From Escherichia phage vB_EcoM-RPN242, in sequence record OL656110.1: 64,000 nucleotides of DNA. One strand, given 5' to 3'. A program made the position numbers and the translations under genes. The notes beneath the pieces were generated by a model. The model made no database searches. It was not told where the DNA came from and worked only from the letters and a program-made list of their open reading frames with translations. Position 1 is the stretch's first letter. Each line of letters begins with the position of its first letter. Below are positions 3,395-45,651 of this stretch, piece by piece.

Positions 3395-3608
3395 GGATCA
3401 TGGTAGTTTGTAAACGAAGTTGGACCAGAACTTACGAACAAACTTCTTGACATAAACCATTCGGTTGGCGTATTCCCCATCCTTCAGGTCATTGTAGGTC
3501 TCGATCCCTACCGCGCCCAAGAAGTACGCCGTGAAGATATAGCAGAACAGATTGATGACGACAAACATGATGTATCTCCGCTGTGTGTACTCAATTATTT
3601 ATGGTATG

Positions 3609-4031
3609 TTACAAAAGGCGCTTGGTCTTCGGCTTACCCATTAGAGTGATATCCACAGGCAGGCCAGCTTTCTTGCAACGGTTGATCATGTCCAGGGTGC
3701 CAGTGGACGAACCATCCCACATCGCAATCGGATACACTTCCAGCTTGGTCTGTCTGACGAGATCCAATGCCTTGTCTAACATGTCCTGATTGCGTTTGTT
3801 GCCCATCCCTTTCCCATACTTTTCATAATAGCTCGGAGGTATTGGCATAGGAGTGATATGAACATAATTGATTTCAGCCCAGTCACGGCAAATCTTGTCC
3901 ACACCAGAGGCTTCACCCTCAATCAGTGTATAGACCTCACGAGGATCGAGGAGTTCGTCCAGCTTGGCGAATACCTTATCCCGCTCGGTGATTGAGCGGG
4001 AACCCGTAATGAGAACGATATACTTCTTCAT
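3609..4031 (-). CDS. hypothetical protein, possible Rossmann-like SLOG/DUF2493-type fold
   Basis: MKKYIVLITGSRSIT...LIEGEASGVDKICRDWA pattern; start at 4031 or 4049. Confidence 0.45.
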   Translation of the reverse strand: MKKYIVLITGSRSITERDKVFAKLDELLDPREVYTLIEGEASGVDKICRDWAEINYVHITPMPIPPSYYEKYGKGMGNKRNQDMLDKALDLVRQTKLEVYPIAMWDGSSTGTLDMINRCKKAGLPVDITLMGKPKTKRLL

Positions 4032-4803: not shown

Positions 4804-5247
4804 TCAGTTGTTAACGCGGAATGCCGCCGGATACCCACCTGGATGCCCTTCTCCGGTCACGAAGACCTCGTACCGGGCACCTTTAACCAAACCAGGCAAA
4901 TTGCCTGAGTCAAGCAGATAGCGGATTTTATCCATAGTCTCCATCCAGGACTTAGCAGGTTCGGCCTCGGCCTCCCCACGGTTGATTTTGATCACACCCT
5001 CTGAATAATACTTCCCATTGTCCTTCATGTAGTACAGCTTGACATCGATAAACTGTGGGGATGGAACTTCTGTCCAACCCTCATCGTTCAAATCCTGGCG
5101 ATCATTGTCGAAACTCTGAAAATCAACATCACCGCATGCCAGGCGATAATCTTTGAATTTACGGAAACCTTCCACCTTGTCCCCAACGGAGCTACGGAAG
5201 AACTGTTTCTTGGCGGGACTAATGAAAATGAAATTCTTGTCACACAT
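4804..5247 (-). CDS. hypothetical protein, 147 aa
   Basis: Track start is TTG at 5268; ATG at 5247 has AAAGGAAGG 9 nt upstream. Confidence 0.5.
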   Translation of the reverse strand: MCDKNFIFISPAKKQFFRSSVGDKVEGFRKFKDYRLACGDVDFQSFDNDRQDLNDEGWTEVPSPQFIDVKLYYMKDNGKYYSEGVIKINRGEAEAEPAKSWMETMDKIRYLLDSGNLPGLVKGARYEVFVTGEGHPGGYPAAFRVNN

Positions 5248-42835: not shown

Positions 42836-42892
42836 CGCTTTATTCAATAAATAATTGCAGTAAAGTTAGTTGCATGGAAGGGAGGGAACACT

Positions 42893-43039
42893 ATGTTTTA
42901 CATGATGTTACTCCTCATCCTCCTGATCGGGATTACCTTTACTCTCCTGGGTCTACCCGATCAGTCCGGTAAACAGTCGCCCACTTCGGCGCATCCGGTT
43001 TTGTGTGAAGGTTCGTCCGCACTGCTGTGGGCAGTGTAG
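42893..43039 (+). CDS. small hydrophobic membrane protein, 48 aa
   Basis: Strong ribosome-binding site GGAAGGGAGGG; MFYMMLLLILLIGITFTLLGLP... Below the track length cut-off. Confidence 0.4.
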   Translation: MFYMMLLLILLIGITFTLLGLPDQSGKQSPTSAHPVLCEGSSALLWAV

Positions 43040-44864
43040 CTCAAAGAGGAGAGGACTTTTCAAATTAGCTGGGCTGCAGTAAAGTATTAAGCGTGAGGCG
43101 AACAACGCATCGAGTTAGGCATCTAAAGCCGACCTCGCTAATCCCAGTCTCAGGGGCATGCGTGAATAGAGGCGTGATATCCACCTTGCATGGTGTCAGT
43201 GGACGCACTTGACCGTCGGAGAACGAAACTCCCTGTTGTAGCGTGATTAGCTCAGAATCAGAGAGCACCCCGTTGGCAAGTCGACACCAACACAAGGGGA
43301 GGTCGGGGGCGCTAATCTCCATCACGCCGACAACATTATGAGTCTTCCATAGAGGGTTCATAATGTTGCGTCAAAGGGCAACAAGGTTCCTGTTGGTTGA
43401 ATTAACTTGATTCATAGTTCCTACTGATCTTCCCGGATTCGAAGGATCACCAACAGGCGAGGCCGGATGCGTAAGTTCCGGTAAATCGATGGTAACGCCC
43501 TCGCCAACAAAAATAAAAGGTTTTATCAATAACGGGTTACAAAGTATAGTTAACCCACTGAAGCGAAAAGCTGTTTGGGCATTAGACAAACACTTCGATG
43601 TGAACCCAGGACATGGTGTCTTGTGCTCAAACAGGTTTTCGTTTTCGTTGTGCGTGACTTTGCGGGTTTTTAGAAACTGACCAAGCAAATAACTGCTAAT
43701 GATTCCGAAGTTCTGATGGCGGCGTAACAGCCTATAAGTCAGTGAGGTCTTCCGATTCCTCATCACCAAATTCGGCGCACTAAAATAGACGGGAGGGTGT
43801 GATTAATAATCTCCCGTCGACAATGCCGTTATATCTGACTGTCCAAAGGGGATAAGCTCCTGAGTAAGCAGAGGTGGGTTGCCTAAGTCAGATGGGATGT
43901 AAGGTCAGCGCTGGCCAAGCATTTGGGTTCGACTCCTAAAAACGGCTCCACATCTTTGAGGATATTCTCACGAGTATCTTGAAAGATGTGAGCGAAGTCT
44001 TGCCATCAGCCCTGATCCCTGGCAGGTGAAGGGCACACAAATCGAAGTGTCTTGACAATTTATCTTAAACCCAAAGGTTGATCTAGAAATTGGGCGGCCA
44101 ATCCGGTGGACGATAACAGCATATTGGGCCATACTGTTGAGTCAGGGCACTTCGATTTGTGAACTTGAGAGAGCATTGGGTGAAATAGACCATGCCTTGC
44201 AGATTGCGATGTCTACACATTCCGGACACTGGTGGACACCAAGAAGAACTCAGTAGCAGACGAGCCATCAGGGTTAGCTACCCGGCGCGGCGAGGACTGG
44301 GAGGCCGAACTAAGGGGAAACCCGAGACAGGCGTAGTATTCTCAAGTTCACAAAATGAAGAGCATTAAAGAACTCGCAAAGGACCTGAAATTGGTATCCC
44401 TGGCTTGTACCACTGAGTGTTCTTCATCTTTGGGTGATTCTATGTTGCCGGGCTATCAACCCATGCTTGCTGGAGCAACCAGCGGCTCTGAATCAACCAG
44501 CCAGCCTCGTTTGGTCCGAGCGTTAGAGGACAAGTTGCTTCTACATGGAAGTTGCGAGTTGCGACATTGGTTGCAACTTTGATGGCTCTGGATTTTATAA
44601 ACCATGTCTATGGGTGACGCGGGATCTTTAGTACCAGAGCTATCAAAGTTGTGTCCAACCCGATCTTACAAGCCCGTATCCCGGTCTGGTTAAGACTTGT
44701 AAGTGGAAAGCCCTGGAAAAATAAACGCCTGTGGCGAGGCTATGGTGCAAGCCAAAGACTCACAGAAGCGCATGCCGTGAGGCAGCACAAAGAGGCATGC
44801 ATGAACTGATCATGCACAAACGGGATAAAGGGTTGACAGTCCTTGGTCGGACACACAATAATTT

Positions 44865-44941
44865 GGTCCTGTAGCTCAGTGGTAAGTAGCAGTGAACTCA
44901 TAATTCATTGGTCGTTGGTTCAAATCCAACCAGGATCACCA
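44865..44941 (+). tRNA. tRNA with CAU anticodon (Met or Ile2)
   Basis: Hand-folded cloverleaf: acceptor GGTCCTG/CAGGATC, anticodon loop CTCATAA, T-arm GTTGG-TTCAAAT-CCAAC, encoded CCA. Confidence 0.75.
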
Positions 44942-45193
44942 TGTTAAGGGGTGTGAAACATGACACTCCGACAAACACAGTAAGCGTTGCAGTCAGCTGT
45001 GTATAAAATGGGGTGACTCCGCATCGGAAACGATGCCCCAACTTCCAGAAATGGTCGGGCGCAAAGCCTGTAAAGTTCCAGGAGATCGAACCAGAAGGCA
45101 CTGGTCGCCAGTTAACCAATCGGCGCTGAGAAGCGCGGGGAGTTGGGCTACGGCAGATCAAATGCTCAATCGGGTGTGAAGCCCGTCCAAATT

Positions 45194-45282
45194 GGAAGGT
45201 TGCCCGAGATGTTTAAGGGACTCGACTGCTAATCGAGTGGGGCTTTTAGCCCCCGAAGGTTCGAATCCTTCACCTTCCGCCA
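45194..45282 (+). tRNA. tRNA-Ser (GCU) with long variable arm
   Basis: Acceptor GGAAGGT/ACCTTCC, anticodon stem CTCGA/TCGAG with loop CTGCTAA, variable arm GGGGCTTTTAGCCCC, T-arm GAAGG-TTCGAAT-CCTTC, CCA. Confidence 0.75.
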
Positions 45283-45498
45283 AATTACGGGCGTGACTTC
45301 CTGAAGAGTTAGAAGATGTGCATGTCGACTCTCTCGTAATCGGGTGTTTAGGAAGTTAAGAAAATCGCGGCGAGGATAGTGAAATGCAAATAGCTTTCTC
45401 TACGTCGACGACTTCAGGTTCGACTCCTGACGCGCTCTCCCATAGGGTAGTACCAGTGCAAGCGTGTAGTCTTTCAACCCATCCCATCGATGTGGTGT

Positions 45499-45528
45499 AG
45501 CCGGATATCCTATCCGGCTTTCTTTTTA
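45499..45528 (+). terminator. rho-independent terminator after the tRNA region
   Basis: Hairpin GCCGGATATCCTATCCGGC followed by TTTCTTTTTA. Confidence 0.7.
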
Positions 45529-45651
45529 TCCCTGTCTTATTATCTTCTTATCGACCCAAGCATGTCCTCCTTTATCATAGTTTGTTCAATGATACAAAGG
45601 GGGTTTAAAATTTAACCGTTAACCCCCTATCATAGATTTGAGGATACACCA

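Follow-up and report, generated by a model that had tools for sequence, protein, structure and literature searches.

Phage T4 encodes two RNAs, RNAC and RNAD, that have tRNA-like features. These stable small RNAs (species 1 and 2 RNAs), the function of which is unknown, lie in the tRNA cluster of the phage (PMC9697503). Mycobacteriophage DS6A carries a partial tmRNA that lacks a CDS and interferes with the host tmRNA (PMC11915505), and antisense oligonucleotides to tmRNA are an established block of trans-translation in vitro (PMC3384345). The window analysed here is a 64,000-nt stretch of the genome of Escherichia phage vB_EcoM-RPN242 (OL656110.1), and positions 42840–45650 of it were found to be a string of structured RNA genes, all on the + strand, to which the coordinates below also refer unless stated otherwise.

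About 2.6 kb of the interval lacks any credible gene; a first-pass annotation had put the length without convincing ORFs at more than 1.5 kb. The longest ORFs in 43040–45650, of 132 aa (TTG start) and 98 aa, are both on the minus strand. None of six ORFs of 58–132 aa gave a family match in a PHROG search, and codon periodicity was absent from the substitutions in a comparison of 16 relatives. At the left edge, a 48-aa ORF with a hydrophobic N-terminus (42893–43039) matches phrog_8415 (unknown function, E 5e-33), so that an ORF may be present in the leftmost 200 nt of the interval. It is a doubtful gene; its variable sites are distributed 21/18/23 over the three codon positions, and a coding signature is absent.

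The two tRNAs of the first-pass annotation were found by both ARAGORN and Rfam, and each has a cloverleaf with an anticodon arm and a score over the RF00005 gathering threshold of 29 bits. The tRNA with a CAU anticodon (44865–44941, 63 bits) is probably tRNA-Ile2, the AUA reader after lysidine modification, rather than tRNA-Met. The orthologue in fGh-Ecl02 is annotated as tRNA-Ile, and tRNA-Ile is among the annotations at the same locus in ECML-4, SJ2 and MK-13. The pairs C4-G69 and C5-G68 and a resemblance to E. coli ileX presumably point to tRNA-Ile2 as well. The other is tRNA-Ser (GCU) at 45194–45282 (54.6 bits). Three tRNAs present in relatives, tRNA-Trp, tRNA-Asn and tRNA-Tyr, were removed from the window with ~420 bp at a deletion junction at 44946–44972 (44946/44972 correspond to 3855/4276 of locus L001, which carries all three there), and phage A221 has the same tRNA deletion. 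These tRNAs went by one clean deletion and not by decay. The best sigma-70 promoter-like site of the region, TTGACA-18-AATAAT (44833–44862), ends 2 nt ahead of the CAU tRNA and is a consensus match alone (11/12 positions). The array is closed by an intrinsic terminator (45499–45527), previously noted as strong, in which a G+C-rich hairpin with a 9-bp stem (45499–45519) is followed by the T run TTCTTTTT. Among relatives the stem is either GCCGGAT/ATCCGGC or GCCCGAT/ATCGGGC, which is paired by eye, the formal count being blurred by alignment shifts.

Two T-arm-like hairpins had been read in the first-pass annotation as possible decayed tRNAs or tRNA-like elements with no matching acceptor stems. 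The first, TTGGG-TTCGACT-CCTAA, lies exactly where reported (43923–43939); the second, TCAGG-TTCGACT-CCTGA, exists but is located at 45414–45430, 9 nt away from the 45405–45421 given. Both have an acceptor strand ~110 nt upstream, and they are the T arms of conserved long tRNA-like RNAs with intact 7-bp acceptor stems and the T loop TTCGAnT. In RNA A (43825–43950), which has a cloverleaf-like fold, the acceptor strand GCCGTTA (43825–43831) pairs with AAACGGC (43940–43946), and the T arm is followed after the acceptor by T and CCA (43948–43950); there are two long arms and no anticodon loop. The 199 records that match RNA A all stem from Ackermannviridae-type phages; 172 of them show 95–99% identity to it, and its conservation exceeds that of its surroundings. 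Compensatory variants were seen in its hairpin GGTCA/TGGCC, and the acceptor is invariant and so cannot be tested by covariation. RNA B (45289–45442), delimited from an alignment of relatives, has the acceptor GGGCGTG/CGCGCTC (45289–45295 with 45431–45437), a long hairpin at 45296–45356, the invariant GTGAAATGCAAATAGCTTTC at 45379–45398, and the T arm with T-CCC-A at the 3' end. In relatives its acceptor is 100% paired, with one compensatory pair and two one-sided changes (three variants, each with 7/7 pairs), as is its T stem, with two compensatory pairs. The minimum-energy fold of RNA C (43241–43328) is a cloverleaf with the acceptor GCGTGAT/ATCACGC and a canonical D arm, TAGCTCAGAATCAGAGAGCA, an over-long arm at the anticodon position, and an atypical T arm and T loop. 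It falls within the part of the upstream region where conservation is highest, and 99% of its pairs are kept in 16 relatives, solely via one-sided changes.

RNAs A, B and C were reported neither by ARAGORN nor by Rfam, even at E up to 10; all three lack a standard 7-nt anticodon loop and have D and/or anticodon-position arms of up to ~60 nt. A scan with Rfam, proposed in the first-pass annotation as a check for further RNAs, finds only the two tRNAs at gathering thresholds, and the proposal to take a lack of further covariance-model matches as a refutation would have wrongly refuted the tmRNA-related RNA described below. The expectation of additional structured RNAs beyond the two tRNAs has been borne out, by the tRNA-like RNAs and by the tmRNA-related RNA, and the likeness drawn to T4, whose tRNA cluster also encodes stable small RNAs, is apt. 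RNAC and RNAD have the same kind of setting as RNAs A, B and C, the comparison being one of position and not of sequence.

The tmRNA-related RNA, of 185 nt (43634–43818), is supported by conservation in unrelated phage families, covariation and sub-threshold matches to tmRNA models, and 91 distinct copies were aligned. It contains a start-less frame (43695–43727), GCT AAT GAT TCC GAA GTT CTG ATG GCG GCG TAA, which encodes the peptide ANDSEVLMAA; it lacks a start codon and is preceded, at a distance of 8 codons, by an in-frame TAG. The frame is intact and always of 10 codons in 127 of the 130 pattern-matching loci listed, the remaining three (L013, L021 and L090) being chance pattern matches and not copies. 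Some families have 1-nt frame-shifting insertions directly upstream of codon 1, and codons 1–2 show synonymous differences. The tag pattern AND...L[M/A][A/V]A is SsrA-like, with an Ala codon first and a hydrophobic, Ala-rich degron end, and AUA is kept at -6 to -4. As a conserved stem extends into the frame's 3' half, part of the apparent peptide conservation could be RNA-structural.

The stop codon is enclosed in a hairpin (43713–43742), the equivalent of helix 5 of tmRNA, in which an outer-stem pair is A-U in 47 and G-C in 44 sequences. Two pseudoknots follow, and pseudoknot 1 of tmRNA is absent. In pseudoknot a (43743–43775), the loop CCGA of the hairpin TGAGG/CCTCA pairs with a downstream TCGG; pairing amounts to 99.1% in stem 1 and 99.7% in the pseudoknot stem, with 3 and 2 compensatory pairs, respectively. 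In pseudoknot b (43778–43818), an upstream CAC pairs with GTG in the loop closed by the stem GACGGGAG/CTCCCGTC, and C-G, U-A and G-C versions of the CAC/GTG pairing occur; both pseudoknot stems covary. The sequence of the pseudoknot b stem is wholly different among families, with TGTGATTAATAA kept in every copy; the loop G(G/A/C)TGTGATTAATAA is nearly invariant, and it belonged to the pattern by which most copies had been recruited. Over the whole fold, 96.2% of cells are paired, as compared with 29–47% when the partners are slid, and 7 pairs show compensatory changes in 180 cells, a number of cells reached by 0 of 500 shuffles. This element, the most unusual in the region, had been missed in the first-pass annotation.

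Every phage copy tested gave plus-strand matches to tmRNA models, the best at 33.7 bits (E 5.8e-5). These scores are below the gathering thresholds, both in the window (tmRNA_permuted, 24.1 bits against 47) and in relatives (at best 33.7 against 47, and 20.9–23.5 against 84 for beta_tmRNA), and ARAGORN reported no tmRNA in the window or in the 130 related loci listed. In alignments to both beta_tmRNA and tmRNA_permuted the tag frame falls on the tag region of the model, and the family profile matches the E. coli tag region in the sense orientation. The tRNA-like domain (7-bp acceptor stem, T arm and 3' CCA) is absent from the phage RNA. A T-arm-adjacent 3' strand complementing its 5' end was sought in 120 copies, and the sole matches were true tRNA-Ser genes. 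Likewise, the alanine identity pair G3:U70 was not found: the tmRNA-related RNA has no acceptor stem, and the corresponding pairs are C3-G70 in RNA A and G3-C70 in RNA B.

The phage RNA thus resembles one-piece tmRNA (SsrA) in its start-less frame with Ala first and a 10-residue tag of the AND...AA type, of the same length as in E. coli, as well as in the AUA at -6 to -4, the stop codon in a hairpin loop and the pseudoknots after the frame. It differs in having no acceptor stem, T arm, CCA end or pseudoknot 1, only two downstream pseudoknots, and a length of ~185 nt as compared with ~360 nt, and its 5' end is an antisense domain (see below) in place of an acceptor and D-loop strand. Like the coding piece of the permuted, two-piece tmRNA found in Alpha- and Betaproteobacteria and cyanobacteria, it has its template on an RNA apart from the acceptor 3' end, and beta_tmRNA and tmRNA_permuted are the models that give the best alignment for its first downstream pseudoknot and for UAAAUGC.AACGAUGA, its pre-tag and tag sequence. 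However, no cognate acceptor piece is encoded beside it, and the partner proposed below is a complete host tmRNA, touched at the template region and not at the acceptor stem or helix 2. The partial tmRNA of DS6A is a mirror image, as it has the tRNA-like half without the template and the phage RNA has the reverse. On these sequence comparisons, the 185-nt RNA is best described as derived from the mRNA-like half of tmRNA, and we consider it very probable that it represents a functional tmRNA-derived RNA family.

The 5' domain (43634–43672) consists of the blocks GTTTTCG(TTG), G(T/C)GAC, TTTGCGG and TTTTTA, joined by linkers of variable length, and its family profile matches the reverse complement of nt 65–103 of E. 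coli ssrA. The predicted duplex of the window copy has -38.3 kcal/mol on tmRNA nt 64–139, with a continuous part at nt 64–106, and is reached by 7 of 300 shuffles. For four divergent families the values are -35 to -41 kcal/mol, each time on tmRNA nt 55/64–107, and are reached by 0–7 of 300 dinucleotide shuffles. All 46 distinct 5' domains map onto tmRNA nt 67–106, although they are homologous and their agreement is hence not independent evidence. Among 3690 background windows ssrA ranks first or in the top handful, and for all but one of the four families its score is equalled by that of a few unrelated windows. Pairing of the 5' domain with its own downstream template is at background level only, and in the Schitoviridae variant GCGAT-TAT-GCGG the complementarity is kept in another register. 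Thus, the complementarity extends beyond chance and beyond self and lies in conserved blocks, and it is statistically moderate (z about -2.5 for the window copy). The target in all of these calculations was ssrA of E. coli K-12, which may not be the host tmRNA of this phage. Nt 67–106 run from the 3' strand of pseudoknot 1 through the single-stranded resume region and the resume codon to tag codons 1–6. The A-rich tmRNA segment is an easy pairing partner for U-rich sequences. The CCGC of the target lies in a stem of host pseudoknot 1, which would need opening.

Synthetic anti-ssrA oligonucleotides used in cell-free translation and ribosome display are likewise antisense to the E. coli tag-template region. 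The classic one, which we take to contain GTAGTTTTCGTCGTTTGCGACTA, is close to the phage blocks (G)ATAGTTTTCGT...GCGACT. The phage version differs in that it is natural and structured, has interrupted complementarity and carries a template of its own. That the tmRNA-related RNA pairs with host tmRNA in vivo has, in our estimate, an even chance of being correct.

The tmRNA-related RNA was found in T1-like siphoviruses, G7C-like podoviruses, lambdoid prophages, P1-like plasmids and ViI-like myoviruses, with 70–81% identity across unrelated phage families and mostly at spots without annotation. No record examined has an RNA-gene annotation for it, and we found no earlier description. Viral contigs contain at least 117 further copies, and 656 of 5426 complete E. 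coli genomes carry the RNA; P1-like plasmids alone account for a diverged copy in about one in ten complete E. coli genomes. In lambdoid prophages it is located in the late leader, between Q and the holin gene, and in P1 in the C1-controlled leader of the ban operon, where it is unannotated and adjoins the 'dicF-like region'. Erwinia Ackermannviridae, a 90-kb Salmonella phage and SE131 gave a BLAST match to the 5' domain only.

The array also contains several conserved long-stem modules. Module I1 (43561–43644), an inverted repeat of the S/S' type with 28-nt arms that are 82% complementary, abuts the tmRNA-related RNA with its 3' arm, and its core GGGCATT...GTGCTC resembles GAGCATT...AGTGCTC of the lambda late leader. 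The 'empty' stem I5 (43949–43990) shows 5 compensatory pairs and 90.6% pairing across 10 relatives, and in phage SeKF_19 it encloses a cargo with a T arm (visible in locus L002). Module I4 (44036–44161), with an 84-nt cargo, is 96.7% paired with 4 compensatory pairs; it is overlapped by the long-range stem I2 (44147–44363; 92.9%, 2 compensatory pairs), which represents an alternative pairing. Module I3 (44567–44658), with a 42-nt cargo, is 100% paired with 4 compensatory pairs. In the late leader of lambda, between tR' and S, stands the same S/S' long stem, CACAACAGGTAAGAGCATT ... AGTGCTCTTTCCGTTGTG, that flanks the tmRNA-related RNA in lambdoid prophages and siphoviruses, and stems related to it are spread through the present array; the tmRNA-related RNA is missing from lambda itself. 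To our knowledge, the lambda module has no assigned function.

The explanation we favour, tentatively and at somewhat short of even probability, is a co-oriented RNA array whose tmRNA-related RNA docks on host tmRNA to form a two-piece tmRNA assembled in trans. The array comprises the two tRNAs, two or three long tRNA-like RNAs, the long-stem modules, the tmRNA-related RNA and one terminator. It would be transcribed as precursors, which RNase P would cut at the 5' ends of the tRNAs and tRNA-like RNAs and RNase III would probably cut in the long stems. The freed tmRNA-related RNA would pair with host tmRNA and bury the host resume codon, and the phage resume codon, with the AUA kept at -6 to -4, would then be presented ~22 nt past the duplex. 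The tRNA function would be provided by host alanyl-tmRNA and SmpB and the template by the phage RNA. Actual use of the tag frame as a template is possible, if on balance doubtful, and it is somewhat unlikely that such a 'template-only' tmRNA of many enterobacterial phages reprograms host ribosome rescue with a phage-specified tag. We know of no case of a template supplied to tmRNA in trans, and the phage tags look like ordinary degrons, so that the gain from a template swap is not obvious.

The same antisense evidence applies to an RNA that pairs with host tmRNA simply to prevent tagging or to bring about cleavage of tmRNA by RNase III and whose frame is never translated, the tmRNA-like body serving for stability or as a decoy for tmRNA binders (S1, RNase R, SmpB). 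Antisense oligonucleotides stop trans-translation in vitro (PMC3384345), the CDS-less tmRNA of DS6A is a precedent (PMC11915505), and the Erwinia, 90-kb Salmonella and SE131 phages match the 5' domain alone. Such a role is nevertheless rather unlikely, as it leaves unexplained 140 nt of template, a stop-codon hairpin and two pseudoknots kept with covariation, along with the exact 10 codons, Ala first, AUA and degron-like C-terminus that all true copies examined have retained. A relic of an old capture would not be expected to preserve 10 open codons of degron-like pattern, nor a 5' domain that matches host tmRNA better than its own template despite complete turnover of the flanking genes. On this account the region would be a structured processing or leader RNA unlinked to trans-translation, made of cis-acting precursor parts (RNase sites, stabilisers, recombination boundaries for tRNA cassettes). 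It is improbable, even though the tmRNA-related RNA is always in leaders or tRNA clusters, its flanking S/S' stems and cargos are swapped among phages like cassettes, and lambda has the stems without it.

A two-piece tmRNA wholly of the phage, with the tmRNA-related RNA as coding piece, a phage tRNA-like RNA as acceptor and host tmRNA uninvolved, would be in keeping with the best Rfam similarity, which is to the permuted models. The acceptor would here be RNA A, which begins 6 nt downstream, has a T-CCA end and is unusually conserved, and elsewhere the tmRNA-related RNA precedes a tRNA or T-arm-containing modules. However, RNAs A and B lack the G3:U70 pair required by alanyl-tRNA synthetase, RNA A is restricted to Ackermannviridae-type phages and the tmRNA-related RNA is not, and in one relative, L119, RNA A is gone and the tmRNA-related RNA persists. 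In addition, no T-arm-adjacent partner strand accompanies the 120 copies, and no covariation links the 5' strand of the tmRNA-related RNA to the 3' strand in RNA B; this arrangement is therefore quite improbable. Decayed tRNA genes plus spacer, or small protein genes, might be suspected from the additional tRNAs of relatives and from the small hypothetical proteins that many GenBank records annotate here on either strand. Yet the missing tRNAs went by one clean deletion elsewhere in the region, the T-arm hairpins are parts of conserved RNAs whose acceptor stems are intact, the position and strand of the annotated ORFs vary from record to record, and all but one of these ORFs have no PHROG family and none has codon periodicity. 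The covariation and conservation data already contradict this explanation, which is highly improbable.

Should the tmRNA-related RNA indeed dock on host tmRNA as proposed, a conserved RNA would have escaped notice in the sequences of well above a thousand phages and prophages, including relatives of lambda and P1 itself, and phages would manipulate trans-translation directly via the tmRNA template. Why ribosome rescue or tagging matters in infection would then become a new, testable question, possible answers being the control of proteolysis and nonstop mRNAs that nucleases of the phage or of defence systems generate. The array would also explain long ORF-poor phage tRNA clusters and late leaders, as arrays of structured RNA cassettes that are bounded by conserved stems and recombine between unrelated phages. 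Annotation pipelines at present fill such regions with spurious small ORFs and with 'tRNA-OTHER' or 'tRNA-Undet' calls.

The interval 42840-45650 belongs to a ViI-like myovirus (Ackermannviridae) and lies between the baseplate-wedge gene block on one side and a plus-strand gene block on the other; the closest records, Escherichia phages A221 and vB_EcoM-ZQ1, are 96% identical across its whole length. The first-pass annotation had read it as an ORF-poor region with two tRNAs, a terminator, and T-arm-like hairpins left by decayed tRNAs or tRNA-like elements, an interpretation that is supported in part. Exactly two tRNAs, tRNA(CAU) at 44865-44941 and tRNA-Ser(GCU) at 45194-45282, were found by both ARAGORN and Rfam, and a terminator-like hairpin with a T run is present at 45499-45527. 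The scarcity of ORFs was borne out: despite hundreds of related genomes, only a 48-aa ORF (42893-43039) has a PHROG match, no codon-position bias was detected among 16 relatives, in which substitutions are spread evenly over the positions of every candidate frame, and the small 'hypothetical proteins' in GenBank records of relatives are placed on either strand at inconsistent positions. The 48-aa ORF has its own PHROG family and a fairly consistent annotation; a third-position excess is absent (21/18/23), and it may be another RNA module, not a gene.

The tRNA set of relatives at this locus is Met/Ile-(Trp)-Asn-Tyr-Ser, and close relatives keep 4-5 tRNAs. The window and A221 have lost the Trp, Asn, and Tyr tRNAs in a clean deletion of ~420 bp, the junction at window 44946/44972 corresponding to 3855/4276 of L001, a relative with all three genes. 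As these genes went in one clean deletion, the 'orphan' T arms are not their remains. The CAU tRNA is annotated as tRNA-Ile in the Enterobacter phage fGh-Ecl02 (Ackermannviridae), and tRNA-Ile is among the annotations at the locus in several other relatives. The window's copy resembles E. coli ileX, and hence it is probably an AUA-reading tRNA-Ile2. It carries substitutions and scores 63 bits, as compared with 70.6 bits for each of the orthologues in four relatives. The best sigma-70-like promoter of the region is at 44833-44862 (11/12 matches), and only 2 nt separate its end from tRNA(CAU), so that transcription would begin at or inside the mature 5' end.

A sensitive BLAST search of the interval revealed that 43641-43810 matches phages unrelated to that of the window, nearly always at unannotated sites. 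The matching segment belongs to a tmRNA-related element at 43634-43818 (plus strand). It occurs in ~47 kb siphoviruses (Bas81, Sf11, C1, and BUCT610), Sashavirus, 'Vibrio' phage pYD38-A, G7C-like Schitoviridae (EC1-UPM, UTK0001, and FSL SP-058), and others, and an exact-pattern scan of viral contigs gave at least 120 loci. In the siphoviruses, a plus-strand promoter-like site, TTGACA-17-TAGATT, directly abuts the first nucleotide of the element, and the few hundred nt downstream often contain tRNA genes. The element was also found in 656 of 5426 complete E. coli genomes, on chromosomes as 137 full-length copies and on 90-100 kb plasmids as 554 diverged ones; E. coli HS lacks it. An exact-pattern scan of species representatives gave only three true copies (Pseudocitrobacter, Rouxiella, and Pantoea) plus a chance match. 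Strain E2865 has it in a lambdoid prophage, just after tR', between the Q antiterminator and holin genes. The P1 copy is itself unannotated; it directly follows the annotated 'dicF-like region' and precedes trnA in the ban-operon leader, which places it under C1 repressor control. The copies in P1 and P1-like plasmids (815-1100 of the compared P1 locus; 2490-2690 of locus L141) are diverged and carry the tag ANDDLMMVAA.

The tag frame in the window, GCT AAT GAT TCC GAA GTT CTG ATG GCG GCG TAA, encodes ANDSEVLMAA, has no start codon, and is preceded by an in-frame TAG eight codons upstream. It is open for exactly ten codons in every true copy, i.e. in 127 of the 130 pattern matches listed, the other three being chance matches. 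The frame of E. coli tmRNA encodes ANDENYALAA, and tags in other copies include ANDDVVLMAA, ANEEMYLAVA, ANDEQFLAVA, and ANDNTFLAVA. Families differ synonymously in tag codons 1-2, and one-nucleotide insertions just 5' of the tag shift the frame in some of them; hence only the ten tag codons are in register.

The stop codon lies within a hairpin that is followed by two H-type pseudoknots, a (43743-43775) and b (43778-43818). Structure was scored as a hand-built model with a formal pair count. Among 91 distinct sequences, 96.2% of the cells are paired, as compared with 29-47% when the partners are slid, and compensatory changes occur at seven pairs in 180 cells, a number matched by none of 500 shuffles. 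Covariation is seen in the stems of both pseudoknots, and one base pair appears as C-G, U-A, and G-C. RNAalifold gave almost nothing on the first alignment because this was poor in the variable stems. The last stem differs wholly in sequence among families, and its loop retains TGTGATTAATAA in every copy, a constancy that is partly by construction, as this loop belonged to the pattern by which most copies were collected; the P1 copy, found by BLAST, has a different loop. In fGh-Ecl02 (~2690-2870 of the compared locus), pseudoknot b and ~190 nt downstream are of the siphovirus/Schitoviridae version, the Ackermannviridae 3' end (T arm, AAACGGC, and T-CCA) is kept, and the 5' acceptor strand of RNA A, one of the neighbouring long tRNA-like RNAs, is lost. 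This phage is a natural recombinant and could show which parts are required.

The tmRNA covariance models gave plus-strand matches below threshold in every copy tested (best 33.7 bits, E 5.8e-5), the alignment extending from the pre-tag sequence across the tag to the first pseudoknot of the betaproteobacterial two-piece model. The element lacks an acceptor stem, a T arm, and a CCA end, and its scores stay under the gathering thresholds. The tmRNA database paper catalogues 79 tmRNAs of phages, as well as a phage form that is CDS-less and inhibits the tmRNA of its host (PMC11915505); the present element would fail the criteria of that pipeline. The prophage sRNA svsR is unrelated to it, and no description of the element, of a phage 'template-only' tmRNA, or of a natural antisense RNA to tmRNA was found in the literature. 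The interval holds a new tmRNA-derived RNA family whose proposed mode of action is unusual, plausible, and testable.

Together with a phage tRNA-like RNA, the element could in principle form a self-contained two-piece tmRNA, as the model aligned to it might suggest. This is unlikely, since the adjacent tRNA-like RNAs lack G3:U70, and RNA A is missing both from the other phage families and from an Ackermannviridae relative in which the element is retained. No consistent covariation links the 5' strand of the element to the acceptor 3' strand of RNA B (5/7 pairs in L001 and L051). A one-piece model in which TTCGTTT (43638-43644) pairs with AAACGGC was rejected, since many relatives have a T/C polymorphism that would disrupt this pairing, and chance alone should give 6/7 matches several times in each locus. 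A search beside T arms for a 3' strand matching the element's 5' end found only true tRNA-Ser genes (120 copies). An alignment to the tmRNA_permuted model had suggested that the 5' domain (43634-43672) is an analogue of the acceptor strand and D arm of tmRNA; this was dropped in favour of an antisense reading.

When the 10 kb surrounding ssrA of E. coli K-12 were searched with a profile of the 91 element sequences, the two best matches both fell within the 363-nt gene. One was the tag region in the sense orientation, as expected, and the other aligned the 5' domain with the reverse complement of nt 65-103. Four blocks of the domain, AGTTTTCGT, GCGAC, TTTGCGG, and TTTTTA, are essentially unchanged across phage families and would pair, in this order, with ACGAAAACU, GUCGC, CCGCAAA, and UAAAAA of tmRNA, the variable-length linkers facing predicted tmRNA bulges. 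Within the host RNA, the target takes in the 3' strand of pseudoknot 1, the resume codon and nucleotides upstream of it, and tag codons 3-6. For four divergent families, predicted duplexes of -35 to -41 kcal/mol all fall on tmRNA nt 55/64-107, and their energies were equalled by 0-7 of 300 dinucleotide shuffles. Against 3690 background windows, ssrA ranked first for one family and among the top few for the rest. The 46 distinct 5' domains all target nt 67-106, a count to be read with regard to the copies not being independent. The Schitoviridae variant GCGAT-TAT-GCGG keeps complementarity by contiguous pairing with AUAGUCGC. Each 5' domain pairs with its own template region no better than background, and phage templates differ from the host exactly at those positions that would make their own antisense domain a self-targeter (GUCGC to AAAUGC, ACGAAAAC to ACGAUGAU, and similar). 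The statistical strength of this complementarity to host tmRNA is moderate.

Docking of the element on host tmRNA would bury the host resume codon, and the phage frame would then be offered to ribosomes that had accepted the host's alanyl-tRNA-like domain. We propose such template replacement because the element retains a complete template with AUA at -6 to -4, the stop-codon hairpin, and the pseudoknots, and so may offer a frame of its own. The main rival is that the element acts purely as an inhibitor or decoy. The phage tag is different yet still degron-like, and the benefit of a template swap is not evident. Antisense oligonucleotides to the same part of tmRNA are a standard means of suppressing trans-translation in vitro (PMC3384345).

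Both T-arm-like hairpins noted earlier are present, the one at 43923-43939 as described and the other at 45414-45430, 9 nt from the reported position (about 45405-45421). They had been said to lack acceptor stems; both in fact sit in long tRNA-like RNAs that have them. RNA B (45289-45442) has the acceptor GGGCGTG, directly 3' of tRNA-Ser, paired with CGCGCTC, the heptamer immediately 3' of the T arm. In Kuttervirus and Klebsiella-phage relatives, the acceptor is GAGTGTG/CGCACTC and GGGTGCG/CGCACTC, further variants exist, and the T stem TCAGG/CCTGA becomes TCGGG/CCCGA or CTGGG/CCCGG; both stems are 100% paired, with three compensatory pairs in total. A 20-nt stretch of RNA B (45379-45398), GTGAAATGCAAATAGCTTTC, is the same in 5/6 divergent relatives and includes AAATGCAAA, reminiscent of the pre-tag/first-codon motif TAAATGCAAAC of the element.

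RNA A (43825-43950; acceptor GCCGTTA/AAACGGC, then T-CCA) has a predicted four-way junction without an anticodon loop. It was found in Ackermannviridae-type phages only, with 95-99% identity in 172/199 records, as compared with about 84-87% for the whole interval in the same genera. Being invariant, its acceptor cannot be tested by covariation; an internal hairpin has compensatory variants. A third candidate, RNA C (43241-43328), folds as a cloverleaf in which the acceptor stem is perfect and the D arm canonical, and shows one-sided changes only. None of the three was reported by ARAGORN, nor by Rfam even at E up to 10. Their thermodynamic z-scores (-0.3 to -1.0) are not significant, and hence their support comes from conservation and covariation. 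They are reminiscent of RNAC and RNAD, two stable RNAs of unknown function from the tRNA cluster of T4 (PMC9697503).

An anticodon-less mini tRNA-like sequence of ~65 nt, TCCGGTG ... TCTGG-TTCGAGT-CCAGA-CGCCGGA-A-CCA, lies in EC1-UPM (~1950-2015 of the compared locus) ~450 nt 3' of the element, within a 2-kb unannotated gap, and is not called by ARAGORN. In SeKF_19, features annotated as 'tRNA-Ala' (2398-2464 of its locus) and 'tRNA-OTHER' (4909-4994) are insertions relative to the window; neither was confirmed by ARAGORN or Rfam, and both probably represent additional tRNA-like cassettes.

Long stems at 43561-43644, 43949-43990, 44036-44161, 44147-44363, and 44567-44658 take up the rest of the sequence. 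Across ten relatives, they remain 91-100% paired and each has 2-5 compensatory pairs; their core resembles lambda's stem right after tR'. In relatives, the same stems surround different cargos, several with T arms, and whole modules have been inserted, deleted, or exchanged among phage families, as in fGh-Ecl02, where the siphovirus/podovirus version is found downstream of pseudoknot a. Therefore, the array behaves like a series of RNA cassettes bounded by conserved stems, which plausibly serve as RNase III sites and recombination boundaries.

The lambda late leader, from tR' to S, carries a conserved long-stem module and a second one, GTGGTGAATGCGCAGGCTGATGCGC ... GCCGGAGATCAGCGCCGGCCACCAC, with mutually complementary loops on its two hairpins that point to a kissing interaction or a pseudoknot (990-1130 in the compared lambda locus, 3495-3690 in that of E. 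coli HS, and 1725-2170 in locus L142). In the form seen in locus L024, these modules occur in 158/5426 E. coli genomes. Two further segments of the window match unrelated Klebsiella phages, 44430-44510 in FBKp27 (84% over 81 nt) and 44662-44720 in FKP3 (90% over 59 nt), and these sequence matches suggest that other modules of the array are likewise common to different phage families.
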